Made by a program: the position numbers and the translations under genes. Under the pieces are notes generated by a model. That model made no database searches, was not told the DNA's origin, and saw nothing but the letters and a program-made list of their open reading frames with translations. This document shows, piece by piece, positions 3,077-50,632 of a stretch of 64,000 nucleotides of DNA. This stretch comes from Candidatus Latescibacterota bacterium (GTDB lineage Bacteria > Latescibacterota > UBA2968 > UBA8231), in the NCBI GenBank assembly GCA_964291625.2, contig OZ220090.1, positions 544,001-608,000 of the forward strand, in the 5' to 3' direction. The number at the start of each line of letters is the position of its first letter. Position 1 is the stretch's first letter.

Positions 3077-5233
3077 GTGAGACGGGACATACCACAGGAG
3101 TACAGCGACCACCTGGCCACGCGCCGGGAGCACGTGCTGGGCGGCGGCGGCGAGCGACTCTCCTTCCGCGCCTTCTGGGTCGGCGGCTTCCTCTCCTTCT
3201 TCCTCGCCGTGGGCGCGCCCTACGGCAACATGATCATCCGCGGCTCCTACATGGCCCTCGACTTCAGCACCCCGGGGGCGATTTTCCTCTTTCTGTTCCT
3301 CATCGGCCTCCTCAACTGCGCCTTCAAGCTCGCCCGCCACCCTGCGGTTGCCATCGGCCTCGCCGGCTCGGCCACGGCGGGATGGCTGATCGTCTACAGG
3401 ACGGCCATCACCGATCTCGACTTCTACTCCCCGGGTCTGATGCTGGCCACCTTCCTGGTCCTGACCACCTGGCTCAACCTGCCGGTGGTGCTCCGCGGCG
3501 GGAGCCTGGCCCTGAACCGATCCGAGCTGGTCCTGGTCTACGCCATGCTGCTCATCGTCTCCGCCCTGTGCACCATGGGGCTGGGCGAGCAGATCCTGCC
3601 CGTCATCACGGCGATCTTCTACTTCGCCTCGCCGGAGAACCAGTGGGCGGAGAAGCTCTTTCCCCACCTGCCCCAGCGGGCGATGGTGAACGACGGCACG
3701 GACAGCCGACTGTTCTACGAGGGACTCTCCGGTCCGGAGGAGGCGATTCCCTACGAGTCCTGGGTGGAGCCCCTCCTGTGGTGGGGGATCTTCCTGCTGG
3801 CCCTGTACGTGATGATGGTCTCGGTGGCCGTGATCCTCCGCCGCCAGTGGATGGAGCGGGAACGCCTGGCCTACCCGATCGCGCAGGTGGGCCTCTCGAT
3901 GATCCGCTCCGAGCACGCCGACCGGGCGGTGAACGGCTTCTTCAGGCGACCCCTCATGTGGTTGGGGGCGTCCCTGCCCCTGATCGTCGGCAGCCTGAAG
4001 GCCCTGAACCGCTACTACCCGGAAGTTCCGGTGGCGCCGACGCATTGGTTCCTGCCCTTCGTGGGATACGAGAGCCTGCAGATCACGATCAGCTTCGCCA
4101 TGCTGGGGTTCTCCTACTTCATCAACGCCAACATCGCCGCCGGCATCTGGTTCTTCCACCTGTTCTCGAAGGTGGAGAAGCAGGCCCTGCTTCTCACCGG
4201 CCTCCAGTCCACGCAGAAGATCAGCTTCGGAGTCTCCGACTATCCCTTCCTCGGCTACCAGGGAGTGGGGGCATTGCTGGCCATGGTGGTCGTCGGTCTG
4301 TGGGTCGGCCGCGAGCACTACCGCCGGGTGCTGCTCAAGGCCGCCGGCCTCGCTCCCGAGGTGCAGGACGAGGACGAGATCCTGTCCTACCGGGGCGCCG
4401 TGGCGGGGGCCGTGGGCGGCACCGCCCTCATGGCTGGATGGCTGTGGATCATGGGGACCCCCCTGTGGGTGGCCCTGCTCTTCATCGTCCTGGCCATCCT
4501 GATCTTCATCGGCATTACCCGGATCGTGACCGAAGCGGGACTGGCCGCCATCCGCTCGCCGATGATCGCCAGCGAGCTGGTGGTGCAGGGGATGGGCTCC
4601 TCCCTGGTCGGCCCCGCGGGAGTGATGAACCTCTCCCTGACCTACATCTGGGCCGCCGATATCCGCGTCTTCGTCATGGCCACGGCCTCCAACGCGTTGA
4701 AGATGATCGAGGAGATGGAGCCCCGGAACCGGCGCATCGTGTTCTGGGCCATGGTGGCGGCCATGTTCATCGGCGCCGCCGGATCCTTGTGGATGATCTT
4801 CCACATGGCCTACCGGCACGGGGGCATCAACCTGGCGAGCTGGTTCTTCCAGGGCCTGCCCCGGACCGCGTACGACGCAGCCCTGCGCAACATGGAGCCC
4901 GAGGGAACCTACTGGCCGGGTCTCGGCTTCTTCGGGGGCGGCGCCGCCGCCATGGTTGCCATGATGTGGCTTCGCCAGCGGCTGCCGTGGTGGCCCGTCC
5001 ATCCCATCGGCTTTCCCATCGGCGCCAACAGCATGATGAACCACGTCTGGTTCAACGTCTTCGTGGCCTGGCTGGTGAAGCGGACCGTGCTGCGCTACGG
5101 CGGCGCCAACGCCTACCACGGCAGCCAGCACTTCTTCCTGGGGCTGATCGCCGGCCAGGTCCTGTGCAACGGCCTGTGGCTGGTGATCGACTACTTCACC
5201 GGCAAGGTGGGCAACTCCATCTTCTGGGTGTGA
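3077..5233 (+). CDS. Polytopic membrane protein, OPT-like / DUF6785-DUF6784-type (paralogue 1)
   Basis: Many hydrophobic segments, QWMERERLAYPI and WWPVHPIG motifs. Start moved to GTG 3077 because GGGAGG lies upstream and the N-terminus then aligns with paralogue 2. Confidence 0.75.
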   Translation: MRRDIPQEYSDHLATRREHVLGGGGERLSFRAFWVGGFLSFFLAVGAPYGNMIIRGSYMALDFSTPGAIFLFLFLIGLLNCAFKLARHPAVAIGLAGSATAGWLIVYRTAITDLDFYSPGLMLATFLVLTTWLNLPVVLRGGSLALNRSELVLVYAMLLIVSALCTMGLGEQILPVITAIFYFASPENQWAEKLFPHLPQRAMVNDGTDSRLFYEGLSGPEEAIPYESWVEPLLWWGIFLLALYVMMVSVAVILRRQWMERERLAYPIAQVGLSMIRSEHADRAVNGFFRRPLMWLGASLPLIVGSLKALNRYYPEVPVAPTHWFLPFVGYESLQITISFAMLGFSYFINANIAAGIWFFHLFSKVEKQALLLTGLQSTQKISFGVSDYPFLGYQGVGALLAMVVVGLWVGREHYRRVLLKAAGLAPEVQDEDEILSYRGAVAGAVGGTALMAGWLWIMGTPLWVALLFIVLAILIFIGITRIVTEAGLAAIRSPMIASELVVQGMGSSLVGPAGVMNLSLTYIWAADIRVFVMATASNALKMIEEMEPRNRRIVFWAMVAAMFIGAAGSLWMIFHMAYRHGGINLASWFFQGLPRTAYDAALRNMEPEGTYWPGLGFFGGGAAAMVAMMWLRQRLPWWPVHPIGFPIGANSMMNHVWFNVFVAWLVKRTVLRYGGANAYHGSQHFFLGLIAGQVLCNGLWLVIDYFTGKVGNSIFWV

Positions 5234-5297: not shown

Positions 5298-7478
5298 ATG
5301 TCCGGCCGGCAGCAGGCGGACCCGGTGAACAGGACGATCCCGCAGGAGTACGGCGAGCGCCTGGCCGAGCGCCGGGAGCGCGTCCTGGGCGGCGGCGAGC
5401 GCCTCTCCTTCCGCGCCTTCTGGGTCGGCGGCTTCCTCTCCCTCTTCCTGGCCGTGGGCGCCCCCTACGGCAACATGATCCTCCGCGGGTCCTTCATGGC
5501 CATGGACTTCAGCACCCCGGGGGCGATCTTCCTCTTCCTCTTCCTCATCGGCCTTCTCAACTGCGCCTTCAAGCTCGCCCGGCAGCCCGCCGTGGCCCTC
5601 GGCCTGACGGCTTCGTCCACGGCGGCGTGGCTGGTGGTCTACAGGCCGGCCCTCGGCGACCTCGACTTCTACTCCCCGGGCCTGATGATGGCCACCTTCC
5701 TGGTCCTGACCACCTGGCTCAACCTGCCCGTGGTGCTCCGCGGCGGCAGCCTGGCCCTGAATCGCTCCGAGCTGGTCCTGGTCTACGCCATGCTGCTCAT
5801 CGTCTCGGCCTTGTGCACCATGGGCCTGGCCGAGCAGATCCTCCCCATCATCACGGCGATGTTCTATTTCGCCACCCCGGAGAACCAGTGGGCGGAGAAG
5901 CTCTTTCCCCACCTGCCGGAGGGGGTGATGGTGAACGACGGCACGGACAGCCGCCTGTTCTACGAGGGCCTCTCCGGTCCCGAGGAGGCGATTCCATACG
6001 CCTCCTGGGTGGAGCCCCTCCTGTGGTGGGGGGTCTTCCTGCTGGCCCTGTACGTGATGATGGTCTCGGTGGCGGTGATCCTGCGCCGCCAGTGGATGGA
6101 GCGCGAGCGCCTGGCCTACCCGATCGCCCAGGTGGGCCTCGCCATGATCCGCTCCGAGCACGCCGACCGGGCCGTGAACGACTTCTTCAAGCGACCCGTC
6201 ATGTGGCTGGGGGCGGCCCTGCCCCTGGCCCAGGGCAGCTTGCGGGGGCTGAAGTTCTACGAAGTGCCGGTGCCCACGACGCGCCTGGAGTGGAATCTCC
6301 CCTTCATCGGCCTCCAGAGCCTGCATCTGAGCGTCAACTTCGCCGTCCTCGGGTTCTCGTATTTCATCAACGCCAACATCGCCGCCGGCATCTGGTTCTT
6401 CCATCTCCTCTCGACTGCGGAAAAGCAGTTGCTCATCCTCACCGGGCTGCAGTCGTCCCGGAAGATCGGTCTCGGCGTCTCCGACTACCCCTTTCTCGGG
6501 TACCAGGGGGTGGGGGCGCTGCTGGCCATGGTGGTGGTCGGCCTGTGGGTGGGCCGCGAGCACTACTGGCGAGTCCTGCGCAGGGCCGTCGGACTGGCCC
6601 CCGAAGTCCGCGACGACGACGAGATCCTGTCCTACCGGGGCGCCGTGGCCGGGGCCCTGGGAGGCACCGCCGTCATGACGGCCTGGCTGTGGTACATGGG
6701 GACCCCCATGTGGGTAACCCTGCTCTTTCTGCTCGTGGCGGTGCTGATCTTCATCGGAATCACGAGGATCGTGACCGAGGCCGGCCTGGCGGTCGTCCGC
6801 GGGCCCATGATCGCCGGCGACCTCGTGGTGCAGGGAGTCGGTTCCTCCCTGATCGGCCCCGCGGGGGTGGTGAACCTCTCCCTGGCCCACGTCTGGGCCG
6901 CCGACATCCGTGTCTTCGTCATGGGCACCGCCTCCAACGCCCTGAAGATGATCGAGGAGATGGAGCCCCGGAACCGCCGCACCGTGTTCTGGGCCATGAT
7001 CGCCGCCCTCTTCATCGGCGCCGCCGGCTCCCTGTGGATGATCTTCCACATGGCCTATCTCCACGGGGCCCTCAACCTGAACGGCTGGTTCTTCCGGGGG
7101 CTGCCCCGCTACGCCTACGATGCGGCCCTGCGCAACATGGAACCCCATGGGGTTCACTGGCCCGGGCTCGGCTTCTTCGGCGCCGGGGCCGCCGCCATGG
7201 TCACCCTCATGTGGCTGCGCCAGCGGCTGCCCTGGTGGCCCGTCCACCCCATCGGTCTACCCATCGGCGCCACGCCCATGATGAACCGCCTCTGGTTCAA
7301 CGTCTTCGTGGCCTGGGTCGTCAAGCGAGGCGTTCTGCGGTACGGCGGCGCCACCGGCTACCAGAAGAGTCAGCCCTTCTTTCTCGGGTTGATCAGCGGC
7401 CAGGTCCTGTGCAGTGGAGGCTGGCTGGTGATCGACTACTTCACAGGCGCAGTGGGGAACTACCTTTACGAGATATGA
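5298..7478 (+). CDS. Polytopic membrane protein, OPT-like / DUF6785-DUF6784-type (paralogue 2)
   Basis: Collinear and largely identical to 3077..5233. Alternative start GTG 5325. Confidence 0.8.
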   Translation: MSGRQQADPVNRTIPQEYGERLAERRERVLGGGERLSFRAFWVGGFLSLFLAVGAPYGNMILRGSFMAMDFSTPGAIFLFLFLIGLLNCAFKLARQPAVALGLTASSTAAWLVVYRPALGDLDFYSPGLMMATFLVLTTWLNLPVVLRGGSLALNRSELVLVYAMLLIVSALCTMGLAEQILPIITAMFYFATPENQWAEKLFPHLPEGVMVNDGTDSRLFYEGLSGPEEAIPYASWVEPLLWWGVFLLALYVMMVSVAVILRRQWMERERLAYPIAQVGLAMIRSEHADRAVNDFFKRPVMWLGAALPLAQGSLRGLKFYEVPVPTTRLEWNLPFIGLQSLHLSVNFAVLGFSYFINANIAAGIWFFHLLSTAEKQLLILTGLQSSRKIGLGVSDYPFLGYQGVGALLAMVVVGLWVGREHYWRVLRRAVGLAPEVRDDDEILSYRGAVAGALGGTAVMTAWLWYMGTPMWVTLLFLLVAVLIFIGITRIVTEAGLAVVRGPMIAGDLVVQGVGSSLIGPAGVVNLSLAHVWAADIRVFVMGTASNALKMIEEMEPRNRRTVFWAMIAALFIGAAGSLWMIFHMAYLHGALNLNGWFFRGLPRYAYDAALRNMEPHGVHWPGLGFFGAGAAAMVTLMWLRQRLPWWPVHPIGLPIGATPMMNRLWFNVFVAWVVKRGVLRYGGATGYQKSQPFFLGLISGQVLCSGGWLVIDYFTGAVGNYLYEI

Positions 7479-43944: not shown

Positions 43945-46878
43945 ATGGCAAAGACGGCTGACCACTCCGGCTCGGCGGGATCGTACGACTTCCGGCGCAT
44001 CGAGAAGCGCTGGCGGGAGCACTGGATCGCCGAGGGCACCTACCGCACCGCCGGCCCGGGAGAGGAGGGCTACGACCCGGAGCAGCCGCGGTGCTACATC
44101 CTCGACATGTTCCCCTATCCCAGCGGCGACGGCCTGCACATCGGCCACCCGAAGGGATACATCGCCTCCGACATCTACAGCCGCTTCAAGCGCATGGCGG
44201 GATACAACGTCCTCCATCCCATGGGGTTCGACAGTTTCGGACTCCCCGCCGAGCAGTATGCCATCGAGCACAATGTCCATCCCGCAGTCTCCACCGATCA
44301 GTGCGTCGACCGCATCCGCGCCCAGCTCCAGTACCTGGGCCTCGGCTACGACTGGGACCGGGAGATCTCCACCTCCCACGAGGACTACTACCGCTGGACC
44401 CAGTGGATCTTCCTACAGCTCTTCGACAGCTGGTACGACCCGGACCTGGAGTGGCGCGACGACTCGGGGCGGTCGATCCGCGGGCGGACCCGTCCCATCT
44501 CCGAGCTCGTGGACTCCTTCGGGAGGGGAGAGCGGCGGCTCACGGGCCAGGACCGGCGGTCCCTGGAAGGAAGTCCGGTGGAGGCCGGGTGGCAGGAGCT
44601 GTCGGAGGCGCAGCGCCAGGCGGTGCTGAACAACTACCGCATGGCGTACCAGAAGGAAGTCACCGTCAACTGGTGCCCCGGCCTCGGCACGGTCCTGGCC
44701 AACGAGGAGGTCACCCCCGAGGGACGCAGCGAGATCGGCGACCACGCGGTGTACAAGCGGCCCCTGAAGCAGTGGATGCTGCGCATCACCGCCTTTGCCG
44801 ACCGGCTCCTGGAAGACCTCGAGGCAGGGGCCCTGCCCGACGGCCGCGGCGGCACCTATGCCCTGGACTGGCCGGACTCGATCAAGCTCATGCAGCGCAA
44901 CTGGATCGGCCGCAGCGAGGGCGCCGAGGTCCGCTTCGACGTGGTCGACGCCTCAGGTTGCACCGGCTCCAGCCTGGAGGTGTTCACCACCCGGCCCGAC
45001 ACGCTCTTCGGAGCCACCTTCATGGTCGTGGCGCCCCAGCACCCCCTGTTGTCGGAGGGAGACCAGGTTCCGGAGGCCTGGCCATCGGATACACCCGACG
45101 ACTGGAAGGGGGAGCCGGGAGCCTCCTCGCCCAGGGAGGCCGTGTCCCACTACGCGGCCCGGGCGGCTCGCTCCACCTTCTCGGTGGCCGGGCAGGATCA
45201 GGAGAAGAGCGGGGTCTTCACGGGGATCTTCGCACGCCGTCCGATGGACGGCCAGCGCATCCCGGTCTTCACCGCCGACTATGTGAGCATGGACTACGGC
45301 ACCGGAGCGATCATGGCCGTCCCCGCCCACGACGACCGGGACCATGCCTTCGCCCACAAGTACGGAATCCCGGTCGTCGAGGTCGTCGAGCCGCCCCCGG
45401 AGGCAGCCGGCACGTTCCCCTACACGGGGGATGGAAGGTCGATCAACTCTCCCGGCGGGGGGGGGGCCGGGAATCCGCCGAGGGACAGCCCGTATGCGAT
45501 CTCGGGTCTGGCCACGGCCGAGGCGAAATCGCGCATGGTCGACGCCCTGGAAGCGGCGGGCGTGGGCCGAAGGGCGGTCACCTGCCGCCTGCGTGACTGG
45601 GTGTTCTCGCGCCAGCGCTATTGGGGAGAGCCGTTCCCCCTGGCCACCCATCCAGACGGCTACACGGTGACTACCGGCCTGCCCGTGGTCCTCCCCGAAC
45701 GAGAGGACTTCCGGCCCAGTACCTCGGACGATCCCGACACCCCGGTCACTCCGCCCCTCGGGCGGGCGGGCAGAGAGTGGACCCAGGTGGAGGTGGGGGG
45801 CGCCCTCTGCGACCGCGAGCTCAACGTCATGCCCCAGTGGGCGGGATCGTGCTGGTACTTCCTGCGCTTCATCGATCCCCACAACGACGGAGCCTTCTGC
45901 GATCCGGAGAAGGAAAGGAGCTTCATGCCCGTCGATCTCTACATCGGCGGCGCCGAGCACGCGGTGCTCCACCTGCTCTACGCCAGGTTCTGGCACAAGG
46001 CGCTCTTCGACCTGGGGCACGTGAGCTCGCCGGAGCCCTTCAAGAAGCAGTTCAGCCAGGGCATGGTCACCGCCGACGCCTTCACCGACGACCGGGGAGT
46101 GTACATCGACATCCGCCAGGTCGCTTTCGACGCCGAGGGCGAGCCCATTCACGCGCAGACCGGGCAGCGGCTGTCGAGACAACGGGGGAAGATGGGGAAG
46201 CGCTACAAGAACGGGCTGCCCCCGGAGGAGGTAGGGGAGGAGTTCGGCGTCGATACGCTGCGGCTGTACGAGATGTACATGGGGCCCCTGGAGCAGAGCG
46301 CCCCGTGGAGCATGGAGGGGATCCGCGGCATGCAGCGGGTCCTGCAGCGGATCTGGAGAAACCTCGTCGCCCAGGACGGGACCGCAAAGATCGACGATGG
46401 CGACGCCCCGGAGGATCTGCGAAGGCTGCTCCACCGGACCATTCAACGGATCACCGCCGACTTCGAGGGATTGCGTTTCAACACCGCCATCGCCGCCCTC
46501 ATCGAGCTGAACAACGAGTTGGTCCCTCTCCAGAGAGTCCCCGCCGAGGTGGCTCGGGCGCTGGTCCTCCTCCTGCACCCACTGGCCCCTCATCTGGCGG
46601 AAGAGTTGTGGCAGCGTTGTGGCTTCGGATCCGGGGATCTCTCCGGCCAACCCTGGCCCGAATTCGACGAAGCCCTGACCCACCGGGAGACGATCCTCCT
46701 TCCGGTGCAGGTCAACGGCAAGGTCCGCGCCACGATCGAGGTGGCTGCTTCGACCTCCGAGGAGGAGGTGAGGAAGCACATCCTCGGCCTGGACAACATC
46801 CAGCGATACCTGCCCGACTCCGGTGAGATCAAGCGCCTGATTCTCGTTCCGGGCAGGATCGTGAACATTGTCGTCTGA
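43945..46878 (+). CDS. leuS: Leucine--tRNA ligase
   Basis: MFPYPSG.GLHIGH, FTTRPDT, GTGAIMAVPAHD, KMGKR, VQVNGKVR. Confidence 0.97.
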   Translation: MAKTADHSGSAGSYDFRRIEKRWREHWIAEGTYRTAGPGEEGYDPEQPRCYILDMFPYPSGDGLHIGHPKGYIASDIYSRFKRMAGYNVLHPMGFDSFGLPAEQYAIEHNVHPAVSTDQCVDRIRAQLQYLGLGYDWDREISTSHEDYYRWTQWIFLQLFDSWYDPDLEWRDDSGRSIRGRTRPISELVDSFGRGERRLTGQDRRSLEGSPVEAGWQELSEAQRQAVLNNYRMAYQKEVTVNWCPGLGTVLANEEVTPEGRSEIGDHAVYKRPLKQWMLRITAFADRLLEDLEAGALPDGRGGTYALDWPDSIKLMQRNWIGRSEGAEVRFDVVDASGCTGSSLEVFTTRPDTLFGATFMVVAPQHPLLSEGDQVPEAWPSDTPDDWKGEPGASSPREAVSHYAARAARSTFSVAGQDQEKSGVFTGIFARRPMDGQRIPVFTADYVSMDYGTGAIMAVPAHDDRDHAFAHKYGIPVVEVVEPPPEAAGTFPYTGDGRSINSPGGGGAGNPPRDSPYAISGLATAEAKSRMVDALEAAGVGRRAVTCRLRDWVFSRQRYWGEPFPLATHPDGYTVTTGLPVVLPEREDFRPSTSDDPDTPVTPPLGRAGREWTQVEVGGALCDRELNVMPQWAGSCWYFLRFIDPHNDGAFCDPEKERSFMPVDLYIGGAEHAVLHLLYARFWHKALFDLGHVSSPEPFKKQFSQGMVTADAFTDDRGVYIDIRQVAFDAEGEPIHAQTGQRLSRQRGKMGKRYKNGLPPEEVGEEFGVDTLRLYEMYMGPLEQSAPWSMEGIRGMQRVLQRIWRNLVAQDGTAKIDDGDAPEDLRRLLHRTIQRITADFEGLRFNTAIAALIELNNELVPLQRVPAEVARALVLLLHPLAPHLAEELWQRCGFGSGDLSGQPWPEFDEALTHRETILLPVQVNGKVRATIEVAASTSEEEVRKHILGLDNIQRYLPDSGEIKRLILVPGRIVNIVV

Positions 46879-46982
46879 GGACGTTCAGAAAGGCGCAGAT
46901 CTGGGTCGGGGATCGAAGGGCGCTTCCGGGTGCCCCATTGTTCACCCCCAAGGGACGCCAACCGCCTGTTCTCTTCAGGGCA

Positions 46983-47010
46983 TAGTTACGTAACGTGTAT
47001 TATACGACAT
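46983..47010 (+). other. dif/lox-like recombination site 1 (11-6-11)
   Basis: TAGTTACGTAA-CGTGTA-TTATACGACAT, an AT-rich island immediately 3' of the recombinase gene. Confidence 0.6.
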
Positions 47011-47042
47011 CACAGCAGTCGCCCCACACGAGCAGGGGGACA

Positions 47043-47996
47043 TCACCGGATGTGGATGTAGTCCGAAGCATTGTCAGTCAGCCGTTCCCGATTCTCGTAG
47101 TACCGCATGGTGGTCTTGAGGTCTTTGTGGCGCAGGTGGGCCTGGACCTGCTGGGGCTTGGCGCCGCCCTCGATCGACAGCGTGCAGCAGGTGTGGCGGA
47201 ACATGTGAGCGGTTACGTTTCGAGTCACGCCGGCCCGGCGGGCATGCTTGCGCACGATGGCGTTGATCGATTGATCCGAGATCCCCTTTCCGCGGGACCG
47301 GTTGCGGGCCAGGGAGATGAAGGCATGTCCCACCACCGGAAAGCCCCCCAGTTCGAGGGCCTGGCGGTAGAGCTCCAGATAGTGCAGGACAATGGGCTGC
47401 AGCTTCACGTCCTGGGGAACCCCGGACTTCGTCTCCGTCAGGCGGAGGAGGTGAAAGGCGCCCTCCTCGCTCAAGTCCGTCCATCTCACGTTGGCCACCT
47501 CGGACCGCCGAAGGCCGGCAAAGGTCAGGAGGTGTAGAATCGCCAGATCCCGGGCGCGAATCAGCGGGTTCTCCTCTTCATCGACAATATCAATAATTCT
47601 CTGTAATTCATTTCGAGTCAGTGCCTTACCGCTCACCGTCTCATCCAGTCGATAGCCGCGCACGAGGGAGGCGTCCGCTGGGTTTCTTTCGATGAGGCCC
47701 GTCGCCGCCATCATGCGGAAGAACGCCTTCAGGCTGGCCAGCTTGCGGTTGATCGTCGACCGCTTGCGGCCGCGGGCGGCCAGCGCGTTCCGGAAGTCGA
47801 TGATGTCGGCGAAGGTCACTGCGGCCACTCTCTTGGGAGTGATGCCGCCGCTGCCGAAAAACTCCCGGAGGTCCGCGCAATAGGCCCGGCGGGTGCGCTC
47901 CGTCAGCTGGCCCGACAGGAAGCGCTCCAGTGGGTCCCCGGAGATGGCCCGGGCAGGATATCCCGAAGGCGGGGCGGGCGTGATTTCGGTGCTCAT
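47043..47996 (-). CDS. Tyrosine recombinase/integrase (Xer-like)
   Basis: N-terminal TRRAY..DL SAM-like domain; full catalytic set GLRRSE, TKS, HMFRH, LRH, TTMRYY; start placed at ATG 47996. Confidence 0.93.
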   Translation of the reverse strand: MSTEITPAPPSGYPARAISGDPLERFLSGQLTERTRRAYCADLREFFGSGGITPKRVAAVTFADIIDFRNALAARGRKRSTINRKLASLKAFFRMMAATGLIERNPADASLVRGYRLDETVSGKALTRNELQRIIDIVDEEENPLIRARDLAILHLLTFAGLRRSEVANVRWTDLSEEGAFHLLRLTETKSGVPQDVKLQPIVLHYLELYRQALELGGFPVVGHAFISLARNRSRGKGISDQSINAIVRKHARRAGVTRNVTAHMFRHTCCTLSIEGGAKPQQVQAHLRHKDLKTTMRYYENRERLTDNASDYIHIR

Positions 47997-48087
47997 GGGC
48001 CCAATATACCCAGCTGGCCCGGATCTGTCATTGCTGCGTTTGCCACGGGCACAGGCGTCCTTCCCGGGCCAGCTCAGCCTGCACGTA

Positions 48088-48115
48088 ATCATTGATAATG
48101 ACGGTTATCGTTGGT
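48088..48115. other. dif-like symmetric site 2 upstream of the recombinase
   Basis: ATCATTGATAA-TGACGG-TTATCGTTGGT; the arms are inverted repeats at 8/11 positions. Confidence 0.55.
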
Positions 48116-48198
48116 TTGGATTCCAGGCCAGTTCTCCGAGCCCGGTTCGCCCGGGCCCTGCAACCCCCCACTCCTCACTTGGCTCGCCTCAAGAGTCT

Positions 48199-48226
48199 GT
48201 GATACATAATGCAGATTATACGTCCT
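48199..48226 (+). other. dif/lox-like recombination site 3 (direct repeat of the site 1 arms)
   Basis: GTGATACATAA-TGCAGA-TTATACGTCCT; left arm 7/11 and right arm 9/11 identical to site 1. Confidence 0.6.
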
Positions 48227-48260
48227 GTACACCTCCGGGGCAGAACGCCCTCTTGGAGTT

Positions 48261-50051
48261 TCACGTCCGGTGGAAGAGCCGATCGAGCTCGTGGAGAAGG
48301 ATCTTGATCAGGATCGGCCGGCCGTGAGGACAGGCGAAGGGCTCGCGCGCGTTGAGTAGTTTGCGGACCAGCGACTCCATCTCCGGGATGGAGAGCCTCT
48401 CGCCGGCGCGGATCGAAGTGTGGCAGGCCATCGATGCGGCGACGGCGTCCCGTGCCTCCGGTCGCACATCCAGCTCCTCGATCAGGTCGGACAGGATCTC
48501 GTGGAACAGGTCTCCGTCACCCCAGTGACGCAGCCCAGGCGGGATGGCATCGATCAAGAGACTCGCGGGACCGAACTCGCGCACGCCGAATCCCAGTCTC
48601 TCGAACAGCTCACGGGCCTGGAGAAAGGCCTCCATCTCCACGGGGCTGACCGTGACTGTCAGGGGCACCAACAGCTGCTGAGAGGCCCCACCTTCCGCTT
48701 CGAGAGCGTCCTGCACCTCCTCGAAGCGGACCCGCTCGTGGGCCACGTGCTGATCGACGACGAGGAGTCCGTCACGGATGGGGATCAGCAGGTACTTGTC
48801 GTGGATCTGCCAGGATATGGTGGAGCGCCGCGCCTCTCCCAGGGTCTGGCGGCCCACGGCGTCTGCCGACACCGGCTCCCCGGGGACGGGGGCCGCTGGC
48901 AGGAGGGTCAGTCTCATCTGATCCGCCGCCCCATCCCACGGCTCTGGCTCGGCGACATAGCCGCTCCCGCTCTCGGCCAAACCCTCGACCGCCGTCTCCG
49001 CGGCCGGCGCCGCCTCGTCGGCCGCGCCTGACGGATAGGAGTAGGTCTGCGCCTCGGGGACCTTCAGGGCATCTCGCACCGCCTTCTGCACCAGCTGCCG
49101 CAACTCCGGCTCCCGGGAGAAGCGCACCTCCCGCTTCGTCGGATGGACGTTGACGTCGAGATGGCGGGGATCCAGGTCCAGCCACAGGACGAACTCGGGA
49201 TGGCCGTTGTGGGGCAGCAGCGAGCCGTACCCGTTGTAGACGGCGGTGGCAAGGGGGCGGCATGTGATGGGGCGCTGCCGGACGACGACGTACTGCCTGG
49301 AACGGGCCCGCCCGCAATCTCCCGGCGGTTTCAGGAATCCCTCGACCCGCGCCTCCGCTCCACCGACTTCCGCCTCCCCCTGAACGGCCAGGAGCCTCCC
49401 GGCCTCGAGGCGGAGCAGCTCCGCCGCTCGCAGGCCCCGCTCCCCCGGGGGCAGGTCGAGGATCTGCCGGCCTCCCTGATCGAGGCGGAAGGAGACCTCC
49501 GGCCGGGCGGCGGCCAGGGCCACGACGGCCTGGGTCACATGCCGCAGCTCCGTGTCCCGGTGGCGCATGAACTTCCTCCGAGCGGGGGTGTTGTAGAACA
49601 GACCGCGGATCTCGATGGTGGTGCCCACGTCTCGCCCCACGGGCAGTAGTTCGCGCTGCACTCCGCCTTCGACGACGAGACGCGTGCCCTCGTCGCCCCC
49701 GGCGGGACGGCTCTCCACGGTCAGTCGGGAGACGGCGGCGATGCTGGCCAGGGCCTCTCCCCGAAACCCCATGGTGGAGATGGTGAACAGGTCCGTGGGC
49801 GTTCGCATCTTGCTGGTGGCGTGGCGCTCGGTGCAGAGCTCCACGTCCTCCCGAGACATGCCCAGACCGTTGTCGGCGACGTGAATCCCCTGGAGGCCCG
49901 CCTCCTCGATCTCGATCCCTATGCGGCTGGCCCCGGCGTCGAGGGCGTTCTCCACCAGCTCCTTGACCGCCGATGCGGGCCGTTCGATCACCTCCCCGGC
50001 GGCGATCTTGAGCACCAAGCTCTGGGGCAACCGCTGGATGCTCGCGCCCAT
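48261..50051 (-). CDS. mutL: DNA mismatch repair endonuclease MutL
   Basis: IAAGEVIERP, GFRGEAL, DVNVHPTK, DQHVAHER, CPHGRP; ATG 50051. Confidence 0.97.
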   Translation of the reverse strand: MGASIQRLPQSLVLKIAAGEVIERPASAVKELVENALDAGASRIGIEIEEAGLQGIHVADNGLGMSREDVELCTERHATSKMRTPTDLFTISTMGFRGEALASIAAVSRLTVESRPAGGDEGTRLVVEGGVQRELLPVGRDVGTTIEIRGLFYNTPARRKFMRHRDTELRHVTQAVVALAAARPEVSFRLDQGGRQILDLPPGERGLRAAELLRLEAGRLLAVQGEAEVGGAEARVEGFLKPPGDCGRARSRQYVVVRQRPITCRPLATAVYNGYGSLLPHNGHPEFVLWLDLDPRHLDVNVHPTKREVRFSREPELRQLVQKAVRDALKVPEAQTYSYPSGAADEAAPAAETAVEGLAESGSGYVAEPEPWDGAADQMRLTLLPAAPVPGEPVSADAVGRQTLGEARRSTISWQIHDKYLLIPIRDGLLVVDQHVAHERVRFEEVQDALEAEGGASQQLLVPLTVTVSPVEMEAFLQARELFERLGFGVREFGPASLLIDAIPPGLRHWGDGDLFHEILSDLIEELDVRPEARDAVAASMACHTSIRAGERLSIPEMESLVRKLLNAREPFACPHGRPILIKILLHELDRLFHRT

Positions 50052-50053
50052 CG

Positions 50054-50632
50054 CTACAGCTCCGGGGCGATCTCGGAGACGCGGCGCTCGTACTCCTCCT
50101 GGGTCATGCGCCCCTCCTCCAGGTCCTTGCGGGCCCGGGCCAGGCGCTCCCGGGGACTGCCGATCCGCCGGTGCATCCGGGCCTGCTGCACCAAGTTGTA
50201 CAGTCCGAAGAGGAGGAGGCCGCCGATGGCGGCCATCCAGGCCGACTCGCGCCACCAGCGTCCGCGGTCGGTGCCCACGGACAGGGCCACCCCGGAGGCC
50301 CGCCACCGGGCGAGGGCCTCGATCACCACAGCCTCGTCCGGCATCGGCACGATGATGTCCTTCGTCAGGGACCGGTGGCCCTCCTCCTCGATGACCACCG
50401 GTTGACGCAGCCGGCCGATGAGCCTGCCCTCCACCACCTCGATCCTCTCGATCATGTCCTGGGACACCAGCTCCTCCAGGCGCTCCGGACGGATGGCGGT
50501 CTCGGAGGGTGCCAGCAGGCTCAGCAGCAGGAGCAGGCTGATCAGTCCCAGGGCCAGAATCAGGGCGAGGGCCGTGGCCGAGGGTCCCTGGCTCGTCCCG
50601 AAGCTCTCCCTGGTCTCGTCGTGGGTTGTCAC
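50054..50632 (-). CDS. Membrane protein: TM - FtsH-extracellular-like loop - TM - SHOCT-like tail
   Basis: Two hydrophobic helices flanking LEELVSQDMIERIEV; C-terminal LEEGRMTQEEYERR. Confidence 0.6.
   Translation of the reverse strand: MTTHDETRESFGTSQGPSATALALILALGLISLLLLLSLLAPSETAIRPERLEELVSQDMIERIEVVEGRLIGRLRQPVVIEEEGHRSLTKDIIVPMPDEAVVIEALARWRASGVALSVGTDRGRWWRESAWMAAIGGLLLFGLYNLVQQARMHRRIGSPRERLARARKDLEEGRMTQEEYERRVSEIAPEL

Follow-up and report, generated by a model that had tools for sequence, protein, structure and literature searches.

To our knowledge, bacteria rely on XerCD/dif or, in its place, on a single recombinase (XerS, XerH, XerL, or XerA). The canonical XerCD system works at one dif. 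The locus described here, a tyrosine recombinase gene (rec) between leuS and mutL, shares features with that system at two flanking sites (sites 1 and 2): the build of XerC arm, 6-bp spacer, and XerD arm, the TTATGTAAATA-type XerD arm, and the position at the terminus. It differs in that there are two or three dif-type sites rather than one and in that the host XerC is without three catalytic residues. The host encodes proteins of both the XerC and the XerD type, and rec itself scores far below both equivalog cutoffs.

According to Le Bourgeois et al. 2007 (PMC1914069), the XerS/difSL module of streptococci and lactococci is conserved throughout a single family and is presumed to stem from one acquisition. 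As described there, XerS is a lone simple tyrosine recombinase encoded right beside its own dif-like site in a terminus module, which is also the arrangement of rec and a third site, P. However, in the same account XerS replaced XerCD/dif, whereas XerD and dif-type sites remain in the rec host and XerC is intact in many relatives. The arms of difSL (31 bp) are given there as unequal; P, at 28 bp (11-6-11), is near-palindromic.

XerA/dif, XerH/difH, and XerL/dif each combine one recombinase with a terminus-type site of 11-6-11-like geometry, as proposed here for rec and P (PDB 4a8e, 5hxy, and 5jk0; PMC9765430). The organisms that carry these systems are without XerCD, whereas the rec host has both Xer proteins. 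We know of no general adjacency of the XerA, XerH, and XerL genes to their sites.

The locus in relatives of the host also resembles Acinetobacter dif modules, in which, as four reports describe them (PMC13141974, PMC12907356, PMC5790767, and PMC9947245), a cassette is bounded by inverted XerC/XerD-type sites and inversions occur at the sites. Acinetobacter modules and IMEX elements share a further feature with the rec locus, namely, exchange of what the cassette contains at one fixed position (in genome G007). Unlike the Acinetobacter modules, the rec locus is chromosomal, lies at the main terminus, and is vertically inherited, and a search of plasmids gave no copy of it. IMEX elements usually lack a recombinase; unlike them and the Acinetobacter modules, the rec cassette brings a recombinase together with a site and, in one clade, mutL as well. 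Finally, Cre/loxP, like rec and P, pairs one recombinase with a site next to its gene, and in both sites the arms are symmetric and the spacer is not. However, loxP has a 13-8-13 build; all three sites of the locus are 11-6-11, and P has Xer-type TAA/TTA inner ends. Leslie and Sherratt reportedly found in 1995 that Cre/loxP at the Escherichia coli terminus can substitute for dif.

The leuS-mutL gap and its recombinase gene

We analyzed a stretch of 64,000 nt (the window), and window coordinates throughout are positions within it. The host genome (5.9 Mb) is a MAG in 2 contigs, with a completeness of 95% and a contamination of 6.6%. The features of the locus are collected in Table 1.

Table 1. 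Features of the rec locus and its neighbors, in window coordinates
Feature	Position	Strand	Content	Placement or role
leuS	43945..46878	+	Pfam LeuRS domains	Convergent with rec
Site 1, dif-type	46983-47010	Read on -	ATGTCGTATAA-TACACG-TTACGTAACTA (XerC-type arm, spacer, XerD-type arm)	33 nt past rec stop
rec	47043..47996	-	Simple tyrosine recombinase (core-binding and catalytic domains), 317 aa, full R-K-H-R-H-Y set	
Promoter-like pattern	48003..48031	-	ATGACA-17-TATATT (consensus scan, pattern match only)	Ends 7 nt before rec ATG
P site, near-palindromic 11-6-11	48088-48115	Read on -	ACCAACGATAA-CCGTCA-TTATCAATGAT	Proposed cognate site of rec
Site 2, dif-type	48199-48226	Read on -	AGGACGTATAA-TCTGCA-TTATGTATCAC	35 nt past mutL stop; same orientation as site 1
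mutL	48261..50306	-	Pfam MutL_C, DNA_mis_repair, HATPase_c_3	Upstream of rec, same strand

A sequence-only reading of this DNA had placed a single intact tyrosine recombinase between leuS and mutL, and this was confirmed by Pfam and by the full catalytic set. The rec open reading frame spans 47043..48092 on the minus strand, and the ATG at 47996 is the likely start. The protein contains the Pfam domains PF00589 (86.4 bits, against a gathering cutoff of 27.1) and SAM_1 (39 bits). Its PF00589 score and its R-K-H-R-H/W-Y set, read off an alignment to XerA (4a8e), both place it in the tyrosine recombinase superfamily. The AT-richer tract at 47581-47620, to which the reading had also drawn attention, is real (12 G+C of 40, counted by eye); it is coding sequence, for rec residues 126-139. 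The consensus scan found one promoter-like pattern for rec, where 0.3 was expected. Contigs from an RNA library cover rec, which is no proof of transcription.

By whole-protein score, rec is below the curated cutoffs of the XerC model TIGR02224 (114.4 bits; cutoff, 335.15) and the XerD model TIGR02225 (115.8 bits; cutoff, 329.6). It is also below those of the XerA model NF040815 (107.2 bits; cutoff, 220) and the XerS model NF003462 (65.3 bits; cutoff, 267). The closest solved relative by sequence is archaeal XerA (PDB 4a8e, E 7.5e-14), which also came closest by fold (ranks 1 to 6). XerA works as a single recombinase. All matches in the fold search were generic for tyrosine recombinases (TM about 0.45), a consequence of the flexible link between the two domains. 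Cre appeared in it at rank 7 and below, with 16 to 17% identity, and the search against solved structures gave no sequence-level match between rec and Cre.

The leuS-mutL gap is the replication terminus (dif region) of the chromosome. We trained ten skewed 8-mers (GGGGGAGG and similar) on contig C1 only and then applied them to contig C2, where their cumulative curve peaks at C2:589785. The polarity of these 8-mers switches about 1.2 kb from the rec locus, and both the polarity peak and the last plus-oriented KOPS-like 8-mer fall inside leuS, at window position 45785. The rec locus lies at 0.467 to 0.496 of the chromosome length from dnaA in all 17 closed chromosomes with an orthologue and at 0.47 to 0.48 in the host genome. 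Neither the window's composition profile nor a plain cumulative GC skew varied enough to place the terminus.

Of 24 genomes from the host's own family, 18 have a rec orthologue (E < 1e-90), against none of 16 from the three other families in its class. We recovered 56 species-level rec loci. Among 16 loci fetched from relatives, rec lies between leuS and mutL in 11; in 3 others, leuS is beside rec and the mutL side is beyond the contig end. The gene is single-copy at a fixed locus, and its identity (59 to 94%) runs parallel to that of LeuS (61 to 95%). The comparison shows rec to be vertically inherited and not mobile. Three family genomes have an intact XerC but no detected rec (G012, G021, and G024). 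The absence is uncertain in each: the contigs of G021 and G024 break off no more than about 0.4 kb from the leuS stop, and leuS was not found in G012. In G003 and G020, rec was likewise not detected.

Two dif-type sites and a third site beside rec

On the forward strand, site 1 reads TAGTTACGTAA-CGTGTA-TTATACGACAT and site 2 reads GTGATACATAA-TGCAGA-TTATACGTCCT. Their arms are identical at 7/11 and 9/11 positions (by eye), against 4/11 for inverted pairing, which bears out the direct orientation. Between the spacers, 1/6 positions agree. The sequence-only reading was therefore right to describe two direct 28-bp sites of 11-6-11 build with these arm matches and with differing spacers. It had also likened the TATACG arm to that of Cre loxP, and this did not stand. 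On the minus strand, the two prove to be ordinary sites of the XerC/XerD type: site 1 matches the family dif-type consensus (ATGTCtTATAA-N6-TTATGTAAATA) at 19/22 positions, with 10/11 in the XerC-type arm and 9/11 in the other, and site 2 matches it at 15/22 (8/11 and 7/11). Sites 1 and 2 are dif-type sites of the host, with an XerC arm and an XerD arm each, and probably not rec's own.

The pattern TAA-N6-TTAT has 5 matches in the window, at 3 places, all inside 1.24 kb. Shuffled sequence gave an expectation of 0.04, and 5 matches were reached in 0 of 100 shuffles; a chance origin of the cluster is excluded. Far from being common genome-wide, the longer TAA-N6-TTATACG has two copies in the whole 5.9 Mb, both at the rec locus. 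Many relatives also have a dif-type site at the site 1 position, and dif-type (U) sites occupy the site 2 position in L051, L052, L054, L063, L089, L092, L103, and L106. Within the genus, the flanking sites differ widely, and their distance from rec is always about 30 nt to 3.5 kb. In relatives, inverted dif-type sites have flipped a mutL-rec cassette, and the inversions were precise in 3 of 3 pairs tested; in the host window, the sites around the cassette are direct, not inverted. When we scanned rec-less sister families for canonical dif (ATAA-N6-TTATG), matches were no commoner than those of a control pattern. The same was true of a 3-mismatch dif-type scan of five genomes, which recovered only degenerate sites beside rec, in G041 and G023.

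The third site, P, was absent from the first description of the module. It is located between the rec start and site 2, 92 nt upstream of the rec ATG, and has the same 28-bp, 11-6-11 build as sites 1 and 2. P is linked to rec. With a threshold of at least 16/22 to ACTAACGATAA-N6-TTATCGTTAGT, 53 of the 57 loci gave exactly one match, upstream of rec in every case and at a median distance of 158 nt from the aligned rec start, and there was no other match in the 367,347 windows scanned across the loci. In locus L059, P stays with rec and not with mutL. The P core GATAA-N6-TTATC is absent from the closed genome G007, which is without rec. P is unique in the host genome. Whole genomes of relatives were checked by a short core pattern only, which gave 1 to 8 core matches per genome and 22 in G023; among the matches listed, the core match with the locus's own P spacer adjoins rec.

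Within P, position A1 and the ATAA/TTAT inner ends are invariant or nearly so. Both arms changed symmetrically 16 times, at positions 2 to 5, and positions 5 to 7 are asymmetric in 19 to 23 of 53 sites. P matches the dif-type consensus at only 5 to 7 of 11 positions, and its arms (ACTAACGATAA) are unlike the XerC-type arm (ATGTCtTATAA). It lies 57 nt upstream of the predicted -35 box of rec, a position at which a purely regulatory binding site is neither proven nor excluded. From these comparisons, P is likely the recombinase's own site. The suggestion in the sequence-only reading of a new single-recombinase system with its own site holds in part: an own site is probable, with P and not the flanking pair as the likely candidate.

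Competing accounts of the locus

We favor, with modest confidence, the account in which rec and P form a "site plus gene" module for dimer resolution that sits beside XerCD/dif at the terminus. The locus is probably a spare chromosome-untangling system rather than a jumping gene. We infer that rec would bind P and recombine it, resolving dimers. A rec homodimer would bind both P arms, the two P sites on a chromosome dimer would synapse, and rec alone would exchange strands across the 6-bp spacer. The module would work alongside XerCD/dif and, in the host genus, partly in its place. The idea has a precedent in G007, whose leuS-mutL gap holds, in place of rec, an unrelated Cre-like recombinase with its own palindrome just upstream; the orthologue of that recombinase in L171 has one likewise. 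The closeness of rec to XerA, which works alone, also agrees with this account, as does the state of the Xer proteins. The host XerC is without His II, His III, and Tyr, a loss found in 17 of 23 family genomes examined, the host included; all 7 genomes examined from other families have an intact XerC. Of the 17, 14 carry rec and another has the Cre-like gene between leuS and mutL; the remaining 2 are 76% and 84% complete. The association between XerC decay and rec comes from related genomes only, with perhaps only 2 to 4 independent losses. The host XerD keeps R, R, H (His III), and Y, with His II changed to Gln. This XerD-type protein scores 300.3 bits on TIGR02225, which is below the cutoff, and passes NF001399 (299.3 against 279). 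With XerD retained and dif-type sites persisting in the host, XerD may still act at dif.

The most serious competitor, which we consider unlikely, is a selfish "dif module" or IMEX-like cassette that entered an ancestral dif by Xer recombination, became stuck, and persisted without a host function. P would then serve the cassette only, for example in exchange or autoregulation. The arrangement in relatives suits such a cassette. XerC/XerD-type sites with XerD arms inward bound it in inverted orientation in 26 of 56 related loci, which is comparable to the "D modules" of Acinetobacter plasmids as two reports describe them (PMC13141974 and PMC12907356). The G007 gap holds a different recombinase cassette that is patchy and multi-copy (13 of 41 genomes, fragments included), and a rec fragment is found elsewhere in genome G023. 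Furthermore, in 14 closed genomes rec occurs alongside XerC and XerD with intact catalytic motifs, so rec cannot be seen as a plain substitute for them, and in those 14 genomes another dimer-resolution system would be redundant. However, a stuck cassette fits poorly with a gene that is single-copy at a fixed locus, that diverges in parallel with LeuS, and whose catalytic residues are kept in 55 of 56 orthologues across family-level divergence. We found no close relatives of rec on plasmids or phages, the best matches being 34% and 30% identical, respectively. A functionless gene would also be expected to decay or vanish more often.

A second alternative, quite unlikely in our estimate, concerns the state of the Xer proteins. 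In it, rec would be a new catalytic partner of XerD at dif-type sites, binding or replacing XerC at the ATGTCGTATAA-type arm, and P would be only an operator or loading site. The host XerC, despite the loss of three catalytic residues, is retained as an open frame that is 83 to 96% identical in four congeners (G002, G004, G006, and G007). The open XerC frame, the intact XerD, the 10/11 agreement that site 1 keeps with the family consensus in its XerC-type arm, and the constant proximity of dif-type sites to rec are all consistent with a new partner for XerD. However, it is P, with arms that differ from the XerC-type arm and only 5 to 7 of 11 matches to the dif-type consensus, that is conserved with rec, and not the strongly variable flanking sites. 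In addition, rec is equally conserved in genomes in which XerC is intact.

The sequence-only reading had preferred neither of two explanations, and the other one, a cargo-free, self-mobilizing 1.2-kb element with sites 1 and 2 as attL and attR and its own recombinase to excise and integrate it, is now very improbable. Unrelated spacers block strand exchange between sites, as is established for tyrosine recombinases, so sites 1 and 2 (TACACG versus TCTGCA) cannot excise rec. Their arms are of the XerC/XerD type, the locus is fixed and vertically inherited, and the flanking sites are inverted in those 26 of 56 loci. Direct sites around rec, as in the window, in L051 (genome G002), and probably in L054, would agree with such an element, as would the slightly lower GC content of the module (0.638, against about 0.68 to 0.70 around it) and the swapped gap content of G007. 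The check proposed with that reading was an empty site at the leuS-mutL junction of relatives. We found none with a single copy, and the only rec-less gap, that of G007, is occupied by the other recombinase. A contig from the probable source run spans 46702-49157 without a joint at the sites, and assembled contigs of four runs have no joint at any of the three sites; contigs drop rare forms, and these assembled Logan contigs neither show nor exclude excision or inversion.

An RNA or DNA hairpin at P, such as a mutL terminator or a 5' regulatory stem-loop, is scarcely credible: P does form an inverted repeat (11-6-11), located past the mutL stop and ahead of the rec promoter, with some changes symmetric on both arms, but no T-tract follows it, there is no terminator-like match, its stem would be AT-rich within a 70% GC genome and often broken by the asymmetric positions 5 to 7 while A1 and ATAA/TTAT stay near-invariant, and P goes with rec rather than with mutL, being missing from rec-less G007 although mutL stays there.

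Implications of a probable second terminus module

A broader and rather doubtful proposal is that work at the terminus has been re-divided in this family. In this proposal, rec and P would be the real dimer resolvase, XerC catalysis would have become dispensable repeatedly, and the XerC/XerD-type sites would form an active switch that inverts the mutL-rec cassette. If this were true, flipping of the cassette could alter mutL expression and so create a switchable mutator.

If rec acts on P as favored here, the two would be a compact, orthogonal pair of a recombinase and a 28-bp site that is usable as a tool; the candidate for such a tool is rec with P and not sites 1 and 2. The loci of relatives show that chromosomal dif-type sites outside Acinetobacter can bound and invert cassettes, even with mutL. 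For the family, the module would mean that a third Xer-like recombinase with its own palindrome has stood beside XerCD/dif at the terminus throughout the family's history. The loss of three catalytic residues from XerC in some branches would then show a replacement of dimer resolution caught part-way, and the displacement of XerCD by XerS-type systems would become directly testable.

The recombinase gene, its proposed own site and the replication terminus

A sequence-only reading had placed a single tyrosine recombinase with a full R-K-H-R-H-Y set between leuS and mutL. ORF and Pfam analysis confirmed this gene, rec, and alignment to 4a8e bore out the catalytic set. The protein is a simple tyrosine recombinase, with a PF00589 match (86 bits) and a SAM_1 core-binding domain (39 bits). 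Among solved structures, archaeal XerA comes closest, by sequence (4a8e, E 7.5e-14) as well as in a fold search with a structure model of mean pLDDT 77.6. When scored against the curated Xer models, rec fell well under every cut-off (bits/cut-off: XerD, 116/330; XerC, 114/335; XerA, 107/220; XerS, 65/267). The AT-rich tract reported at 47581-47620 is present, but it is coding and holds no 11-6-11 site; it encodes residues 126-139 (LTRNELQRIIDIVD), which in our model make up the first catalytic-domain helix. Parts of 46400-48800 were also present in contigs of several runs labelled sponge metagenome, one of them an RNA library whose contigs include parts of rec.

Features of the rec locus and related recombinases (unprefixed positions refer to the window; G000, own genome; L, loci from relatives)
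Feature	Position	Strand	Description
Site 1	46983-47010		TAGTTACGTAA-CGTGTA-TTATACGACAT
rec	47043..48092 (ORF); likely ATG at 47996	minus	317 aa; sole ORF between sites 1 and 2
Promoter-like element	ends 7 nt before rec ATG		ATGACA-17-TATATT; pattern match
P	48088-48115	minus	ACCAACGATAA-CCGTCA-TTATCAATGAT; absent from the sequence-only reading
Site 2	48199-48226		GTGATACATAA-TGCAGA-TTATACGTCCT
leuS and mutL	either side of rec		identified by Pfam
XerC orthologue	G000:C1:4123367-4124335		open frame without His II, His III and catalytic Tyr (relatives: L108-L130)
Cre-like recombinase	L047:4672-5631 = L168:1501-2457 (genome G007)	opposite to rec	in the 1.3-kb leuS-mutL gap
Invertible mutL-P-rec cassette, 3.5 kb	L061, L062, L065, L067, L070, L072, L080 and others		bounding sites at ~450-530 and 3930-4060

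P is a third 28-bp site, the sole one of its kind in the genome, and sits 57 nt upstream of the -35 box of the predicted rec promoter. We scanned 57 loci, including the window, for matches of at least 16/22 to ACTAACGATAA-N6-TTATCGTTAGT. In 53 loci P was found exactly once; it always preceded rec, and its median distance to the aligned start was 158 nt. Beyond this one copy per locus, there were zero P-like matches in the 367,347 windows of these loci. One of the four loci without a match is truncated at the rec gene. Position A1 and the inner ATAA/TTAT show no or almost no variation, positions 2-5 changed alike on both arms 16 times, and positions 5-7 vary more in the gene-proximal arm. The spacer resembles CAGGCA in one orientation or the other.

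We picked the ten most strand-skewed 8-mers (GGGGGAGG and others) from contig C1 alone and then tested them on contig C2, on which the window spans G000:C2:544001-608000. Their cumulative orientation on C2 rose to a sharp peak at C2:589785 (window 45785), ~1.2 kb from the rec locus, and then fell. In closed chromosomes with an orthologue, the locus lies at 0.467-0.496 of chromosome length from dnaA (17/17), and in the own genome it lies at 0.47-0.48 under either join of the two contigs. The rec locus is the replication terminus. G-rich 8-mers, including GGGGGAGG, CGGGGGAG and GCGGGGGA, have a leading-strand bias of ~2:1 that converges on the locus and are candidate FtsK-orienting (KOPS-like) motifs of this lineage.

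On the reading with the best support, rec and P would make up a self-contained "site plus gene" module for resolution at the terminus. As a homodimer, rec would occupy both arms of P, and it would exchange strands across the 6-bp spacer between the two P sites that a chromosome dimer carries. Cre/loxP placed at the E. coli terminus can work in like manner. The rec/P plan would mirror that of XerS/difSL (PMC1914069); XerS, XerH, XerL and XerA are described as single-recombinase systems replacing XerCD. Our search of the open-access literature yielded no account of a third Xer-like recombinase that has its own site amid duplicated dif sites at a terminus. A functionless but persistent cassette resembling a dif module is possible but unlikely; the R-K-H-R-H-Y set is kept in 55 of 56 rec orthologues, and the lone outlier is a split gene. 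Published dif modules are those of Acinetobacter.

dif-type sites around rec and their inversions

The two 28-bp sites reported to flank rec held up in coordinates and letters. TAA-N6-TTAT matches the window 5 times, at 3 places, where shuffles predict 0.04 matches. As to its being common genome-wide, TAA-N6-TTATACG occurs only at sites 1 and 2 in the 5.9-Mb genome; a looser 28-bp frame occurs at 9 places, 3 of them within one 1.24-kb stretch here (sites 1, 2 and P). A consensus built from 52 strong sites around rec in relatives reads ATGTCtTATAA-(A/T-rich 6)-TTATGTAAATA, in which an XerC-type arm comes first and a textbook XerD-type arm second. Site 1, read on the minus strand, agrees with this consensus at 10/11 and 9/11 positions and site 2, in the same direction, at 8/11 and 7/11; P matches poorly (5-7/11). 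By their arm sequences, sites 1 and 2 are XerC/XerD-type dif sites. A canonical dif was predicted in the single Gemmatimonadetes genome then available (PMC3025954). In closed relatives, exact TTACATAA-N6-TTAT matches gather within a few kb of rec. That rec is a new partner of XerD at these dif-type sites is quite unlikely. An orphan dif-like 28-mer, GCGGTATATAA-TGCTTA-TTATAAGCCAG, lies at G000:C1:1010027-1010054, distant from the terminus; the surrounding DNA has no tyrosine recombinase match.

Inverted repeats with XerD arms inward surround rec at 26 of 56 loci, the upstream site being "+" and the downstream site "-". The bracket is either tight on P-rec or, in one large clade, ~3.5 kb long and holding mutL-P-rec. 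The paired sites are often identical within a genome, spacer included (28/28 in L071), but differ between genomes. Sites 1 and 2 are direct in the window and in L051, and probably also in L054; this state is confined to the own genus, and we take it as derived. Because their spacers are unrelated, no recombination is expected between sites 1 and 2.

The cassette has leuS on one side in 40 loci, including the window, and on the opposite side in 8; on the rec tree, loci of the two kinds are intermixed. In all three close pairs tested, the central 3.5 kb was collinear at 90-97% identity, the flanks were swapped and reverse-complemented, and the breakpoints fell inside dif-type sites. Therefore, dif-type sites mediated precise inversions in nature. 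The mutL-P-rec cassette occurs in both orientations among close relatives of one clade; thus, with breakpoints in the sites, the housekeeping mismatch-repair gene mutL rides on an invertible segment. We found no account in the open-access literature of a mutL-bearing cassette inverting at dif-type sites.

A third conserved dif-type site, ATGTCTTATAA-GGATAA-TTATGTCAAC, was seen just past the leuS start in L068, L072, L073, L075, L076, L079, L080 and L085 (~6844-6930), oriented as the rec-leuS site with a different spacer; the window has no counterpart. Several MAG contigs of relatives (L054, L064, L078 and L091) end within ~20-80 nt of a dif-type site adjoining rec, and in genomes G004 and G008 rec is split over contigs. 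Such assembly breaks may stem from populations in which the cassette stood in both orientations. In the probable source run, one contig covers 46702-49157 and agrees with it throughout. No joint at site 1, site 2 or P was found in the assembled contigs of any run, which are uninformative on rare excision or inversion.

Inheritance of rec and exchange of recombinases in the gap

Within the family, 18 of 24 genomes have a rec orthologue (E < 1e-90, 60-94% identity); none was found in 16 genomes from the class's three other families, where the best matches are XerC/D types of ~30% identity. A one-genome-per-species scan gave 56 orthologous loci, in hosts labelled Gemmatimonadota (various spellings) or Ca. 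Latescibacterota, and one weak match (36% identity). Among 257 database homologues, the best 120 all have identities of 58% or more and bear generic names only. In 11 of the 16 loci retrieved, rec sits between leuS and mutL; in 3 more, leuS adjoins rec and the mutL side lies past the contig end. In these loci rec identity (59-94%) parallels LeuS identity (61-95%). No close relative was found on plasmids or phages (best matches, 34% and 30% identity, respectively). As judged from locus and divergence, rec is inherited vertically at a fixed place and not recently mobile. The fixed gap, this parallel divergence and the unrelated spacers argue against the self-mobilising element that sites 1 and 2 had been read as possibly bounding, which we consider very improbable. 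G023 carries two short stretches that resemble the N-terminal half of rec (48-55% identity) away from its terminus locus (G023:C1:1234564-1234892); one has an internal stop, and they may be a decayed second copy.

In G007, a closed genome of the same genus, a Cre-like recombinase takes the place of rec and P, with three dif-type sites around it. Its gap shows that the terminus gap can exchange recombinase cassettes. The P core is found nowhere in G007, and in L059, where the cassette is reversed relative to mutL, P remains with rec; that P is a hairpin is scarcely credible. A quasi-palindrome, ACTTGGTATAA-TATCCC-TTATAGAAAGT, lies immediately upstream of the Cre-like gene in G007, and the L171 orthologue has a perfect 11-6-11 palindrome 230 nt upstream. 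These palindromes support a general design in which a recombinase gene is preceded by its own palindromic site. The Cre-like protein is patchy in the class (13/41 genomes), multi-copy and sometimes fragmentary, and thus behaves as a mobile gene. The own genome holds a C-terminal fragment of the same recombinase at G000:C1:77206-77682 (158-aa frame, 67% identical over 84 residues), probably a remnant.

XerC and XerD in genomes with rec

Only four PF00589 matches occur in the own genome: rec, that Cre-like fragment, an XerD-type protein (300 bits, passing NF001399) and an XerC-type protein (148 bits). In the own genus, XerD keeps both Arg, His III and Tyr, and its His II is Gln. Of the 23 family genomes examined, 17, the own included, encode an XerC that has lost His II, His III and the Tyr nucleophile, its inactivity being read from motifs only. 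XerC is intact in the other 6 (one with His II changed to Gln) and in 7/7 genomes from other families; all genomes are metagenome-assembled, and the relatives are non-independent samples. The motif patterns point to repeated, independent losses. Another clade includes 14 closed genomes in which the XerC and XerD catalytic motifs are intact alongside rec, P and dif-type sites. Therefore, rec comes on top of XerCD and is not just a replacement for it. Among the 17 genomes with decayed XerC, 14 have rec and one (G007) has another recombinase in the gap; the remaining two are 76% and 84% complete. XerC decay in genomes that carry a recombinase module fits a take-over in progress.
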